From a virus (taxonomy: Duplodnaviria > Heunggongvirae > Uroviricota > Caudoviricetes), in IMG/VR virus record IMGVR_UViG_2917881069_000006: a stretch of DNA of 41,465 nucleotides, one strand, 5' to 3'. The translations under genes and the position numbers were made by a program. The notes under the pieces were generated by a model. It saw only the letters and a list, made by a program, of their open reading frames with translations. It was not told the origin of the DNA and did no database searches. Shown here in pieces: positions 29,051 through 32,727 of this stretch (its first letter is position 1; each line of letters begins with the position of its first letter).

Positions 29051-29320
29051 GCTTCACCTCCGCAGAGGTCAAACGTTGGATGCAAAGAATCGCAGGTGCA
29101 TTTCTGCATCTGTGAAGGGAGAAGAGAGTTTAGATTGTATGTGCGCATAAACGTCCCCGTTTAGCGCAACCCCACCGCCGGGTGTTCAGGCCGACAGCAG
29201 AAGAATTTTCTCTTATTGATAATTGAAAATCAAAAGAATTTTATCGGTAAATGATGTGATCAGATAAGAACCACATGATAGAATCCGCCGGATTTTTTAG
29301 TGTAACAAAAGAAAAAAATA

Positions 29321-29677
29321 ATGAAAAAAATGTTGGCTGTCGCATTGACAACCCTTTTGCTGACCGGATGTACCGTTCGTGTAGCAGACCTTACTGTAGC
29401 CAGTACAAAAAACTATAATTTAAATGGTGGTAAATTTTACAAAGGAAAACGCGTAACTGCAGAAGATAGCTATCCTGTTATCATCTTCCCAACAGGTATT
29501 CCCAATGTAAAAACTGCTGCCGATCGTGCAATCGAGCAAGACCGTTGCGCTGTGGGTCTGACTGACGTTGTTGTAACACAACTTAACCAATCATTCCTGG
29601 TTGGTAAAATTGGTTTACGTGTTGAAGGGAATCTCATTATTGACCGCAGCCTTCCTGGGTGCGAAAACGCAGGATGA
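29321..29677 (+). CDS. putative lipoprotein (moron, opposite strand to phage genes)
   Basis: 118 aa with signal peptide and lipobox LLTGC (MKKMLAVALTTLLLTGCTV...); own terminator immediately downstream; AT-rich codon usage. Confidence 0.6.
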   Translation: MKKMLAVALTTLLLTGCTVRVADLTVASTKNYNLNGGKFYKGKRVTAEDSYPVIIFPTGIPNVKTAADRAIEQDRCAVGLTDVVVTQLNQSFLVGKIGLRVEGNLIIDRSLPGCENAG

Positions 29678-29682
29678 TGATA

Positions 29683-29710
29683 GTAACCCACTTCGGTGGG
29701 TTACTTTTTA
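29683..29710 (+). terminator. intrinsic terminator of the lipoprotein gene
   Basis: Perfect stem GTAACCCAC-ttcg-GTGGGTTAC followed by TTTTTA. Confidence 0.8.
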
Positions 29711-29938
29711 TCTAAATCATATGTGCCGCCAACAAACAATATACAATTTACTCTAAATAGCTGTGGCAGCATTCTCTAACTTAATATTTATTCTGAAACA
29801 GAGTTAATTATTTAAAAATAAACTTCCCCATCAATCATATACCTGAGAGTACTTATCGCCTGTTGGGCAGATATTATTTTCATCAAAGGATAGTGTTTAA
29901 AAACAATACCATTCATAAAATAGATATCACATGTTTTG

Positions 29939-31339
29939 TTATCTGTGTTTATTATAATTTTTTCGAATGTTTTTATAAGCAAGTGTACGACATAATTCCC
30001 GCCCATTTTTACTGGTTAAATCAATGTCATGGAAATCACCAAGTGTACTTACACCTTTACTCTTCAAAGTTTTTAATGATATAGAAACCCTTCGCAATTC
30101 TTTATCTAATACTCTGATTTTTTCTGCTATAGCGGTAACTTCAGGTGCAACAGATAATGCAACAATTAAATTATTAATTTTCATCTGAAGTTCAATAACT
30201 TTCAACTCCAGAGTTTCATTAACATCTTTCTTATTTTCAACTGGTTGGATTTTACTACAATTAAAAAGCAATTCATTGACTATATTATAGTCAACCAAAT
30301 CTCTTCTTATTGATGGCCTGTTACATCGATGCAATCTTCTCATCGGGCAAACATAATAGCCGTGCAAGCTTCCTGATACTGCATTAACAATCATAGTATT
30401 ACCACAAGCGCCGCACTTCATAACTGTTCGCAGTAGATTTATCAACATAGGGTTCTTGCTACTATTGCTAATACCAAAAGGTGCTAGCCGAATTTCCTGC
30501 ACAGAGTAAAACAAATCATCTGATATCACTCTGGGATAATAGTCAGCGATTTCAATTATTCCCTTCCCTCTTGCACGATATGAAGGTACGCATATACCTA
30601 TCAGCGCTTTATTAGCTAATAATTTTTCAATTACAGAAGGCCCCCATGCACTTTCTTTTCCTGAGAAATTCTTTATAGCATGATCATTTAAATACTTAGC
30701 AATTGCATTCAAAGAGCGTCTTTCCATCCTTAGTTTAAAAATCAGCTCAATCGTTTTCACCCTGTCAGGGTCTAAGACAAACGACGTTCTTTTTTCATCT
30801 AATGAAAGCCATCTCGGGCAAGATGCCGTCATAATCGTACCTGACTCCATTGCATCTTGTCTTTTTTTCTTCCATGATAATTTAACTCGGCTTGACTTTA
30901 TCTCGCTTTCTTCATTGGCCCTTTGAGCTATAAGTATTGCTTTTATTAATGAATATGGTTCATTTAAAGAATCAATATTATAAGTTGTATTATCGCACAG
31001 AGTTATAACATCAATACCATGATTTAAAATCAGTTTCAGGCGTTCAATCGCCTCACCGACTTTTTCTCTTGAAAGTCTGTCCAGACTTTCAACTAGCAAT
31101 GTAGTTCCTGGCAATATACAGCCATGCTCTATGGCATCTAAAAATTCCGAAAAAGCTCCTGACTGTGCATGCTTTCCATTGAATGCGCTTAACCCCAAAT
31201 CTTCATACGTTACGGTATCAAGGTAATAATCACTATTTACCTTTAGCCATTCAGTAATAAGCCTTCTCTGGCGGTTTAATGAATCACCAGACATCTGGCT
31301 TGGTGATGAAAATCGCATATATGCTATGGCTTTTTTCAT
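29939..31339 (-). CDS. large serine recombinase (resolvase/invertase catalytic domain plus recombinase and zinc-ribbon domains)
   Basis: 466 aa; N-terminal AIAYMRFSSPSQ...LNRQ catalytic-Ser motif, central recombinase domain, Cys cluster CGACGNTM...YYVCPMRRLHRCNRP, C-terminal coiled coil; RBS AGGTG; AT-rich gene inside a lambdoid backbone. Confidence 0.85.
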   Translation of the reverse strand: MKKAIAYMRFSSPSQMSGDSLNRQRRLITEWLKVNSDYYLDTVTYEDLGLSAFNGKHAQSGAFSEFLDAIEHGCILPGTTLLVESLDRLSREKVGEAIERLKLILNHGIDVITLCDNTTYNIDSLNEPYSLIKAILIAQRANEESEIKSSRVKLSWKKKRQDAMESGTIMTASCPRWLSLDEKRTSFVLDPDRVKTIELIFKLRMERRSLNAIAKYLNDHAIKNFSGKESAWGPSVIEKLLANKALIGICVPSYRARGKGIIEIADYYPRVISDDLFYSVQEIRLAPFGISNSSKNPMLINLLRTVMKCGACGNTMIVNAVSGSLHGYYVCPMRRLHRCNRPSIRRDLVDYNIVNELLFNCSKIQPVENKKDVNETLELKVIELQMKINNLIVALSVAPEVTAIAEKIRVLDKELRRVSISLKTLKSKGVSTLGDFHDIDLTSKNGRELCRTLAYKNIRKNYNKHR

Positions 31340-31579
31340 GTTGACACCTGCTAACGCATACTTTTATAAACCTTAGCGGCGAGTTATAATTTTGTTTAAT
31401 TTTTATTTAAAAAGACAATCGAGATCACATTTTCTTAAATATACAACAAATACCGCATAGCAATTTGCTGCCACATAAATTCACAGACACAAAAGAATAT
31501 AGTGTATAAGCAGCCTAAAAACATTTATCAACAGTATAAAAAGAAGTTCGTTATCAGTGAATTGTTCTGTGATTGGGGA

Positions 31580-31899
31580 TTATTGAACTTCTCGATCGAG
31601 AATATTCAGAACCCAGCGGGGGAACTCTTTGGCCACAGGAGTTCGTGCGAACATGACGATCAGTTGGTCTCCCCGAAGGCTAAATACTCAAGACGCCTGC
31701 ATCCCACGAGGGTGGTCACTTTGGCCCCTCCTGTCATCATGTCTGTAAATTCATCTGAGTGACGAGAGTAAATGCGCTTAGCTGCTTTATCGTCCGCATA
31801 TTCCAGTGCTAAACCAACTTCAGTGGCAGTAAGCCAAATTCTGTTATTGTGGCAAATCGGGGTAAACGTCGTTTTGAGGAATGCTAATTGAGTAGTCAT
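31580..31899 (-). pseudogene. Bro-N/AntA-like (antirepressor N-terminal domain) protein with 1-nt frame break
   Basis: N-terminal frame MTTQLAFLKTTFTPICHNNRIWLTATEVGLALEYADDKAAKRIYSRHSDEFTDMMTGGAKVTTLVG then stop; a second frame continues ...FSLRGDQLIVMFARTPVAKEFPRWVLNILDREVQ matching the conserved Bro-N C-terminal pattern; break near the A3/T3 run at 31682-31684; span 320 nt (3n+2). Confidence 0.5.
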
Positions 31900-32042
31900 A
31901 GTATCACCTCATCAGGTTAACCATCACCACCAACGACGCCAATCGACAGGTGGTGAACTGTGCAAGGTTGGCGTAACCGGCTACTCAAACCCGGCCCTTC
32001 CGAAGAAGCCCTCACACAGCCCACCATAATTTGGGCGTAACC

Positions 32043-32075
32043 GCGCTTAGCGCATAAAAAACCGCTTAACGCGGT
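32043..32075 (-). terminator. intrinsic terminator upstream of the Bro-N-like gene
   Basis: Stem ACCGC-gttaa-GCGGT followed by TTTTTTAT on the minus strand, adjacent to the palindrome GCGCTTAGCGC. Confidence 0.55.
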
Positions 32076-32260
32076 ATGCGTTGAGTAGTGTTCCGGGACG
32101 CCAATCCCGTGTGCCGATTTTGCGGCAACACAAAGAATTAGCCCAGTGAATGGTGGCGGTCAACTGCAGTCATTCATTCTCATAATGTGATCACCATCAC
32201 TCAACACGTTCCAGAAATCGCTCTATCATACTGACTTTAAACAGTTTTTAGGTGTTAAGT

Positions 32261-32648
32261 ATGTGGTTTATAGTATTAATAGCTATCCTGATTATTGCCG
32301 CTTTCGTTTTTAAAAGCTCCAAATCCCAAAATCCACCTTCGCAACCAGTTCGTACTACTAAAAAAATAAAGGCACCCACACATAAAAAAACGCAAAACTA
32401 ACTATAGTTATAGTACCGATATCATTGAGTTAGATATAACTTATCAGGATGCGAAGGGCGAAATCACTAATCGCCATATATCTATCATAAAATACGACCC
32501 TTCAAAGAAAAAAATATATGCACGGTGCCATTTAAGAAAAAGTATGCGAAGTTTCTATATTGATAGAATATTAACCGCAATAGATATTGAAACTGGCGAA
32601 ATTCTTTCAGATCTCGACGGGTATATATCAGAAAGAATAAACTATTAA
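32261..32648 (+). pseudogene. membrane-anchored WYL-like domain protein, frame broken at an A7 run
   Basis: ATG 32261 (RBS AGGTG) encodes TM helix MWFIVLIAILIIAAFVF and basic linker, stops at 32399-32401; the overlapping frame continues ...ITNRHISIIKYDPSKKKIYARCHLRKSMRSFYIDRILTAIDIETGE... with the WYL-type motif; the two frames meet at A7 (32384-32390); span 388 nt (3n+1). Confidence 0.45.
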
Positions 32649-32727
32649 CATTCAATATATTTGCCCCAAGCATTATATGCTGGGGCATGTAATTATATGA
32701 CCATTGATAATTCCATTTTGTAAATAT

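Follow-up and report, generated by a model that had tools for sequence, protein, structure and literature searches.

Introduction

The interval between ren and ybcN is variable among lambdoid prophages of the DLP12 type. Annotated in K-12 as renD-emrE-ylcJ-ybcK-ybcL-ybcM-ylcH-ybcN, it has the order ren-emrE-ybcK-variable cargo-ybcN in phages Perceval and Turner and in strain ML35, and a Rho/NusG-dependent terminator lies in the leader upstream of K-12 ybcK (PMC4150792). In phage PhiR26_1, the slot between ren and a module of isrK, C4, and antirepressor (ant) genes holds PD-lambda-1, a validated defense gene, on the opposite strand. Antirepressor loci with associated RNA elements are represented by P1/P7 immI (c4-icd-ant) and by Gifsy-1 (isrK-orf45-anrP), in which anrP, a downstream gene of anti-repressor type, is transcribed from the isrK promoter (PMC4825925).

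We describe here the corresponding block (positions 29,051 to 32,727) of IMG/VR virus record IMGVR_UViG_2917881069_000006, a 41,465-nucleotide (nt) stretch of DNA that was analyzed whole and is referred to as the window. The block carries a large serine recombinase gene (ybcK), a fragment of a Bro-N antirepressor gene with two structured RNAs, a lipoprotein gene, and a gene joining a transmembrane (TM) helix to a WYL domain (TM-WYL). An original prediction, made without database searches, had read these parts as one unrecognized combination, possibly a nested mobile element or an anti-phage/exclusion module. We consider it probable that the block is instead a variable accessory ("moron") slot between ren and ylcH-ybcN in DLP12/Bievrevirus-type lambdoid prophages, holding four unrelated modules joined by separate replacement and illegitimate-recombination events. 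Module boundaries, separate distributions, RNA and domain identities, and lesions are established, and three of the four pieces are damaged in the present copy. The cargo combination is new; the slot, ybcK, and the C4 and IsrK-like RNAs are already known, and the lipoprotein and TM-WYL families are uncharacterized.

Results

BLAST comparison of the block with annotated loci of five relatives, namely strain ML35 and four phages (Perceval, IdasGreatGrand, PhiR26_1, and Turner), gave exact module boundaries; the original prediction had called for such a comparison. Junction segment R (29051-29234, minus strand), which comprises a ylcH/orf33-like open reading frame (ORF) of 33 amino acids (aa) at 29047-29148 and a GC-rich stretch, is conserved in relatives; homology there stops at 29168 (Turner, IdasGreatGrand, and PhiR26_1 copy 1) or at 29234 (ML35, Perceval, and PhiR26_1 copy 2). 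The lipoprotein cassette (29235-29793, plus strand) is not in any of the five relatives. The ybcK unit (29794-31546, minus strand) shares ~90% nt identity with ybcK of Turner, ML35, and Perceval, and the 5′ part of the antirepressor with C4/isrK (31544-32142, minus strand) shares 94% with the 5′ antirepressor locus of IdasGreatGrand and PhiR26_1. The TM-WYL segment (32143-32772, gene on the plus strand) had no match in these relatives, and homology to other phages resumes inside ren, at 32761-32794. This block was most likely put together by replacements at recurrent junctions, namely R, the ren 3′ end, both ends of ybcK, and the linker that joins the two domains of the antirepressor.

R is doubled in PhiR26_1 and IdasGreatGrand, where it flanks the ant module, and phages with an intact ant have the order R-hypothetical gene-ant-C4-isrK-R. 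The copies are direct repeats at 1273-1427 and 3273-3427 of locus L004 (PhiR26_1) and at 2581-2669 and 4584-4672 of locus L003, enclosing a 169-aa ORF, ant, C4, and isrK. Because R flanks the module in this way, the intact-ant module looks like a cassette inserted via R duplication.

The four modules are also distributed separately. A scan of IMG/VR with YbcK returned 80 other loci, all in the identical nin position and orientation; emrE lies upstream and none of the other three parts is present in 78 of them, and the arrangement described here occurs in 2. Three classes of sequence follow ybcK. Class A has a 106-bp spacer, then the antirepressor 3′ part, and then the 169-aa ORF, an esterase, or other cargo; class B has ybcL-ybcM, as in K-12; and class C (2 loci) has the present lipoprotein gene. 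Across the classes, variable cargo starts 11 to 106 bp past the ybcK stop: the class A and B flanks are homologous for ~85 bp past it, and class C diverges at 11 to 18 bp. An empty-site search found ybcL-ybcM only in phages that also carry ybcK. The query DNA, which includes ybcK, was matched in 2,965 of 5,426 complete E. coli genomes, none of which covered at least 80% of the block. TM-WYL DNA had no match in those genomes, even by sensitive blastn, and the junction of ybcK with the N-terminal ant fragment was absent from them and from the GTDB species representatives.

The class C arrangement recurs in further contigs at ~98% identity (24 read, 5 aligned), among them the complete 4.9-Mb chromosome CP045690.1, which belongs to a cluster of 99%-identical lipoproteins named Escherichia albertii by one source. 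At that identity the contigs represent one lineage and not independent co-occurrence of the four parts. The 508-aa recombinase and the 128-aa form of TM-WYL are both called in four of the five aligned contigs; the fifth, L103, has a ybcK frameshift of its own, an extra T at the position matching 30117 of the window.

The GC content of 29170-32727 is 37.8%, against 50.8% for the whole window (500-bp windows, mean 0.509, standard deviation 0.073) and 50 to 51.5% for the flanking ren and ninB/ybcN genes, so the AT-rich discontinuity of about 3.6 kb claimed between ren and ybcN is borne out quantitatively. The dip is uneven, with 39% in the lipoprotein cassette, 34.5% in the ybcK unit, and 34% in the TM-WYL segment, and the AT-rich pieces are separated by 596 bp of 49% GC (31547-32142).

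The antirepressor fragment (31544-31899, minus strand, with a short ORF at 31660-31899) is 94% identical in nucleotides to the intact 202-aa ant of IdasGreatGrand and PhiR26_1, in which Bro-N (residues 17 to 100, 38.7 bits) and P22_AR_C (residues 110 to 180, 60.7 bits) domains were found. Its lesions are a 1-bp deletion after codon 62, a CAA-to-TAA change, and truncation at codon 119 by fusion to the start region of ylcJ; all three are common to the aligned class C relatives L010 and L016. The unmodified 79-aa ORF has no Pfam match; the frameshift-corrected translation reaches 26.3 bits for Bro-N (cutoff, 25.6) and matches PHROG anti-repressor families at an E value of 3e-22. Only patchy microhomology is present at the ant/ylcJ junction, GATAACGAACTT versus TATATGAGCCTC. 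On these lesions, the Bro-N gene is best described as a pseudogene fragment, and the protein output of the switch is evidently dead.

The ORF-free structured stretch upstream of the fragment (31946-32140, minus strand) consists of two RNA genes. C4 antisense RNA (31946-32031) matches Rfam RF01695 over its full length (67.5 bits; gathering score, 45; E 4.4e-12), and the IsrK-like RNA/a1-b1 target region (32055-32140) matches RF01394 (isrK, 54.8 bits; gathering score, 50; E 4e-10). The IsrK-like RNA and its terminator hairpin (32075-32061) occupy 32055-32127, just upstream of C4. An a1-b1 target match overlaps isrK at 32 bits, below the RF03163 (c4-a1b1) gathering score of 46.7. A further copy of GAUUGGCGUC stands ~35 nt ahead of the Bro-N ribosome-binding site and, as read from the sequence, is complementary to CGCCAA in C4. 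Both RNAs look intact as far as their sequences tell. Intact loci are no longer homologous beyond 32142, just upstream of the RNAs, so the native promoter region has been replaced. The order of target/IsrK-like element, C4, and Bro-N antirepressor on one strand is that of P1/P7 immI and Gifsy-1; unlike those loci, the antirepressor here is dead, truncated, and without P22_AR_C, the upstream region is replaced, and an icd-like gene was not identified.

The recombinase gene (minus strand) has a canonical frame of 29812-31339 and, as it stands, an ORF of 466 codons at 29939-31339, with Pfam matches to Resolvase (PF00239, E 1e-18), Recombinase (PF07508, E 6e-15), and Zn_ribbon_recom (PF13408, E 1.6e-8). 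One T too many in a T run at ~29970 puts the gene out of frame from codon 457 onward; 52 conserved residues at the end are replaced, and the product is 466 instead of 508 aa long. Relatives at 98 to 99% identity are 508 aa long without this insertion, which is thus private to this assembly. An exact look-up of the 466-aa product returned no record, as expected of a private frameshift. From serine-integrase structures, the lost segment would include the part after the coiled coil. The gene product shares 94% aa identity (~90% nt) with DLP12 YbcK, whose E. coli cluster holds 6,144 sequences, and full-length identity and the ren-ybcN position together mark the gene as the DLP12 ybcK orthologue in a divergent allele. 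The family alignment shows no variation in the catalytic motifs YMRFSSPSQ and DRLSR. The ratio of nonsynonymous to synonymous substitution (dN/dS) between this lineage and K-12/Turner is 0.067 at a dS of 0.47, which indicates that the protein is maintained by selection. The 207-bp leader (31340-31546, minus strand) corresponds to the ylcJ and tybcK region of K-12, and its ylcJ has lost the start and has a stop at codon 8.

YbcK resembles large serine integrases (SPbeta SprA/YokA and the phiC31, Bxb1, and A118 class) in its resolvase catalytic domain with serine motif, recombinase domain, zinc ribbon, and long predicted coiled coil. The closest solved relative is SprA/YokA, to which the family profile aligns over residues 141 to 469; solved integrases are matched weakly (E 5e-5), and by profile alone. 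Unlike these integrases, ybcK does not lie at a prophage end, is without attachment (att) sites in repeat scans, and sits in a phage that has a tyrosine integrase, and the copy here lacks the last 52 residues. A DNA invertase of the Hin/Gin/Pin type (~190 aa with a C-terminal helix-turn-helix) was ruled out by the 508-aa length and the recombinase and zinc-ribbon domains, and no orientation polymorphism indicative of inversion was seen among the 80 loci. Scans for inverted and direct repeats around ybcK gave chance-level matches only, such as a lineage-specific 10-bp perfect inverted repeat at 29761-71 and 31466-75. Local alignment of the flanks of homologues from Atlantibacter, Yersinia, and Pantoea with the three E. 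coli flank classes gave noise-level scores and no att-like motif. No copy of ybcK was found outside the nin region in the sets examined, and among papers on ybcK in the library searched, none of the titles listed concerns its recombination activity.

Family members at 38 to 60% identity in other Enterobacterales lie mostly at prophage or island ends, with the 3′ end facing host DNA or another prophage (L095 7001-9432, L097, L113, L123, L184, L119, and L116). One in Atlantibacter follows tail genes 540 bp from the ssrA 3′ end; those of Yersinia and Cedecea stand between two prophages, those of Ewingella and Pantoea rodasii adjoin host genes, and that of Pantoea wallisii is near a relaxase. Another from Atlantibacter and one from Pantoea dispersa are in a nin-like position. 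Since its distant relatives are mostly at element ends, the clade looks like one of integrases by origin, and the relatives at these ends may be working integrases there, unlike the internal nin copy of E. coli.

Two small ORFs without Pfam domains (~80 and ~115 aa) stand beside YbcK-family recombinases in several genera (L095 6092-6684, L117 and L118 4178-5975, and L114 8167-8729), upstream of the recombinase in some and downstream in one; they are not beside E. coli ybcK and could be accessory or directionality factors. In Pantoea dispersa (L099 7001-9121), a 42%-identical homologue in a nin-like region immediately precedes a 93-aa ORF that matches KilA-N weakly, a neighborhood that echoes that of ybcK and the antirepressor fragment in E. 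coli.

The lipoprotein gene (29321-29677, plus strand) encodes 118 aa with a signal peptide and the lipobox LLTGC (MKKMLAVALTTLLLTGC) and belongs to phrog_7441 (E 1e-67). Cys17 and Gly16 are invariant among 35 homologues, and the Pfam LPAM_1 match is weak (17.2 bits). By eye, an extended −10 element, TGATAGAAT, was read 37 nt ahead of the start, at 29276-29284, and the gene is followed by a strong terminator (29682-29705). Homologues (n = 328; 68 to 99% identity) occur in Enterobacterales, Aeromonas, Shewanella, and Pseudomonas. No named domain was found in Pfam, NCBIfam, or PADLOC, and the AlphaFold model (pLDDT, 76.7) has no significant fold match in the PDB (best E, 0.27). The gene is not at this place in Turner, ML35, Perceval, or K-12, and its position and orientation are those expected of a lysogenic-conversion gene. 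We take it to be comparable to the lambdoid lipoprotein morons Bor and Cor, likewise small, prophage-borne lipoproteins with their own terminators among early or late genes; it differs from them in matching no named family or PDB fold and in belonging to a family 68 to 99% conserved across several genera.

The TM-WYL gene (32252-32648, plus strand) encodes 131 aa when intact and is preceded by a promoter-like site at 32201-32229. An additional A in a short homopolymer run, at 32394, splits the gene here and is not in relatives at 98 to 99% identity; an intact form (P0001) is present in other samples at 98% identity. Private +1 changes in homopolymer runs thus mark both ybcK and TM-WYL, and fresh inactivation and mis-sequencing fit them equally well. 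The product is laid out as an N-terminal membrane helix, a lysine/proline-rich linker, and a 70-residue domain. P0001 scores 16.7 bits against Pfam WYL, below the 21.8 cutoff, and PADLOC WYL is matched at an E value of 2.5e-5; 23 of 32 sampled family members match Pfam WYL (best E, 2.4e-12). Exhaustive HMMER searching yielded 674 cluster representatives at an E value of ≤1e-3, many of them 120 to 160 aa long and with the same layout. The AlphaFold model has a pLDDT of 86.9 (97 to 98 over residues 58 to 111), and in the PDB it is closest to WYL domains, those of PafBC, BrxR, CapW, and DriD (probability, 1.00 each), by which the domain is predicted to adopt the five-stranded Sm/SH3-like WYL fold.

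TM-WYL shares with these four proteins, which regulate defense and DNA-damage responses, the C-terminal 70-residue WYL fold (CapW, 59 residues, root-mean-square deviation of 1.9 Å) and the signature R-x-F-x-x-D-R-I. In contrast to the CapW/BrxR class, it has no winged helix-turn-helix or WCX domain, the model comprising a membrane helix, a disordered basic linker, the WYL domain, and a short helix, and it is a stand-alone opposite-strand gene of phage early regions. Two relatives lie on the opposite strand in such regions, one of them between KilA-N and NinG/NinB genes, and a third is chromosomal. Relatives in cultured phages were limited to four weak tblastn matches (Stenotrophomonas and Acetobacter phages), and tblastn of one relative, P0251, against cultured phages gave no match. 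PD-lambda-1 of PhiR26_1, to which the TM-WYL protein is unrelated, has the same place between ren and the isrK/C4/ant module and likewise lies on the opposite strand.

The window as a whole is a complete lambdoid prophage with its early-right genes on the minus strand, and contig PDIG01000005.1 (assembly GCA_004745185.1) is 100% identical to it. From left to right, it carries tail fiber, Lom, Nu1, and lysis genes, Q, rusA-ybcO-ninE-ybcN, the block, ren, P, and O, followed by a YdaT-type cII-like gene, cI, Dam, and an intD-type integrase end. The left flank of the block is ybcN (28595-29050, minus strand; NCBIfam PRK09741, 276 bits; phrog_72 NinB/Orf), a NinB/Orf-family gene with 95 to 97% nt identity to Turner, PhiR26_1, and IdasGreatGrand, and the right flank is ren (32728-33045, minus strand; phrog_142 Ren-like exclusion protein, E 6e-42). 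Two further AT-rich stretches were noted. One (25501-26900) lies between the lysis genes and Q and carries ynfU-like and cold-shock-domain genes on opposite strands in the gene calls of the identical contig. The other (1201-3000) covers the C-terminal part of a 640-aa tail fiber gene (1658-3580), the left (upstream) end of which is ~400 bp past 1248, the end of a 305-aa endosialidase-chaperone-domain protein (331-1248); this stretch is typical host-range cassette mosaicism.

Discussion

The slot resembles that of DLP12/Bievrevirus-type phages (Perceval, Turner, and 4A7) in backbone position, in the ybcK unit including its leader, in the flanks ren, ylcH, and ybcN, and in the variability of the ybcK-proximal cargo. 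It differs in that emrE and a functional ylcJ are absent, the 5′ neighbor of ybcK is the ant/C4/isrK stump and its 3′ neighbor is the lipoprotein gene, the TM-WYL gene adjoins ren, and ybcK, which has a frameshift in this assembly, is represented by a deeply divergent allele (dS, 0.47).

Much of the original prediction withstood this comparison. Its domain calls (large serine recombinase, Bro-N, WYL, and lipoprotein) agree with the Pfam, PHROG, and fold matches; the terminators it ascribed to the block correspond to hairpins at 29682-29705 (plus strand) and 32075-32061 (minus strand); the ORF-free structured stretch is accounted for by C4 and isrK RNAs above their Rfam thresholds; and accessory cargo at a lambdoid exchange site is what the variable slot of DLP12-type relatives holds. 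The listed genes are all where they were placed, with the correction that three are damaged (the frameshifted ybcK, the ant fragment, and the split TM-WYL gene). That no part belongs to the nin module is true for lambda and untrue for DLP12-type phages, for which the K-12 annotation and the functional phages Perceval and Turner place ybcK there. The recombinase gene, annotated in DLP12 and phages, thus answers in part to what the original prediction had said would refute it, a block already annotated in known lambdoid phages. The claim of a single unrecognized combination or system is not supported: 78 of the 80 ybcK loci lack the other three parts, the breakpoints differ, the Bro-N remnant is dead, and PADLOC reports no system.

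Several observations weigh against a slot filled piecemeal by chance. Sequence from ant abuts the 3′ side of the ybcK unit in most phages and the 5′ side here, with both breakpoints within ~80 bp of ant, which could hint at targeted recombination and not chance. Strong purifying selection on YbcK within the nin region fits poorly with the view of a passive passenger. Promoter-like consensus matches in the block are not commoner than in shuffled sequence (16 found versus 12.9 expected). In addition, metagenome contigs L008 and L009 (MEGAHIT k119, related samples) contain most of the block in circularly permuted form relative to window positions 29080-32170: lipoprotein-ybcK-ant stump-C4-isrK is followed by 141 bp and R, and the contig ends meet inside ybcK. 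They may stem from a real 3.2-kb circle or a tandem; the probable cause is an assembly loop across a doubled R segment, which is at least 155 bp long, and the junction in these contigs is the ordinary isrK-R arrangement of intact-ant phages.

These observations bear on whether YbcK is the integrase of a small nested element, consisting of ybcK and cargo such as emrE or the lipoprotein gene, that was inserted in a lambdoid antirepressor gene and may still be moving or exchanging cargo. We judge this unlikely. It would account for the end positions of the 38 to 60% relatives (Atlantibacter near ssrA, Yersinia, Ewingella, Cedecea, and Pantoea rodasii), the intact catalytic residues and low dN/dS, the proximity of variable cargo to the ybcK stop in all three classes, the ant fragments on either side of ybcK in different lineages, and the permuted contigs. 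Yet an element still in motion is hard to reconcile with a single nin position and orientation in 80 of 80 loci, and three 3′-flank classes separated by deep divergence imply slow turnover. The class A/B homology of ~85 bp and the class C break at 11 to 18 bp leave no single sharp end, the 5′ junction shows microhomology at the ylcJ start codon, as is typical of illegitimate joining, and the surroundings of the gene, in E. coli as in the distant relatives, yielded neither an att-like repeat nor a common motif. Both ant breakpoints fall in the Bro-N/P22_AR_C linker, which explains their proximity without an att site, and the circular-contig junction is that expected of an assembly loop over the direct repeat. 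A 46- to 59-bp ant segment (AAGTTC...GAACTT) present on opposite sides of ybcK was considered as an att site or target duplication and rejected, because class A homology decays gradually to about codon 92 with no sharp break, because each of the linker breakpoints keeps one whole domain, and because of the microhomology at the class C junction. There is only a slim chance that an active YbcK moves or swaps adjacent cargo (emrE, ybcL-ybcM, the esterase, or the lipoprotein gene) between the antirepressor/nin regions of lambdoid phages; if it did, YbcK would be a recombinase-driven cargo shuttle inside phage genomes.

A related proposal, that YbcK is a second phage integrase for an alternative chromosomal attachment site, draws on the integrase-like prophage-end positions of its relatives and on its phage-integrase domain set, with SprA/YokA as the closest solved relative. 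It has little probability. All of the E. coli and IMG/VR loci examined have a prophage that remains collinear across ren-ybcK-ybcN, so the phage did not integrate via a site beside ybcK; moreover, these phages already own a tyrosine integrase (Perceval encodes its own together with an excisionase), and integration at a nin-region site would part Q and the late genes from pR. That the recombinase, Bro-N protein, WYL protein, and lipoprotein form one anti-phage or exclusion system is very unlikely, close to negligible, because the parts are distributed independently and one is dead. The four do stand together where a relative carries PD-lambda-1, WYL domains are common defense sensors (as in the structural matches BrxR and CapW), and the arrangement recurs in other contigs; these contigs, however, are a single lineage, and the Bro-N gene is frameshifted, nonsense bearing, and truncated in the aligned class C relatives. 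The parts also differ in GC content, strand, breakpoints, and phylogenetic distribution. PADLOC 2.0 gave no system-level match, with no match for the recombinase, lipoprotein, or ant fragment and partial WYL-domain matches only for TM-WYL.

Under the accessory-slot reading, the block would not act as a unit. The lipoprotein and TM-WYL genes lie on the strand opposite the early-right operon and have promoter-like sites and hairpins of their own, which suggests that they are expressed while the prophage is repressed and serve in lysogenic conversion or exclusion. The lipoprotein would be destined for the envelope. In the WYL protein, the N-terminal helix would lie in the inner membrane and the basic linker and ligand-sensing WYL domain in the cytoplasm; the positive charge after the helix suggests such a tethered cytoplasmic domain. 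ybcK, co-oriented with O-P-ren, is probably silent in the lysogen, because the K-12 gene lies behind the Rho/NusG-dependent leader terminator, and would be read through from pR after induction. YbcK itself would be a catalytically complete serine recombinase descended from prophage or island integrases and kept by selection, and the C4 and IsrK-like RNAs would be the remnant of an immI-type antirepressor switch with a dead protein output.

The block as such is an unexceptional case of morons stacked at a fixed lambdoid junction and should not be catalogued as a new system. Of its parts, YbcK stands out as a catalytically complete recombinase that is strongly selected where it cannot be the prophage's integrase; about half of complete E. 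coli genomes have DNA matching the query, of which ybcK is a part. The TM-WYL architecture defines a sizeable family that recurs as an opposite-strand gene in prophage early regions. An exclusion or abortive-infection protein would be a reasonable guess, and a membrane-tethered WYL protein as a new single-gene factor of this kind in the PD-lambda-1 slot is a companion reading to the cargo shuttle, and a weaker one. Because that slot holds a validated defense gene in a sister phage and the family recurs in early regions, TM-WYL would be a cheap candidate for plaque assays.

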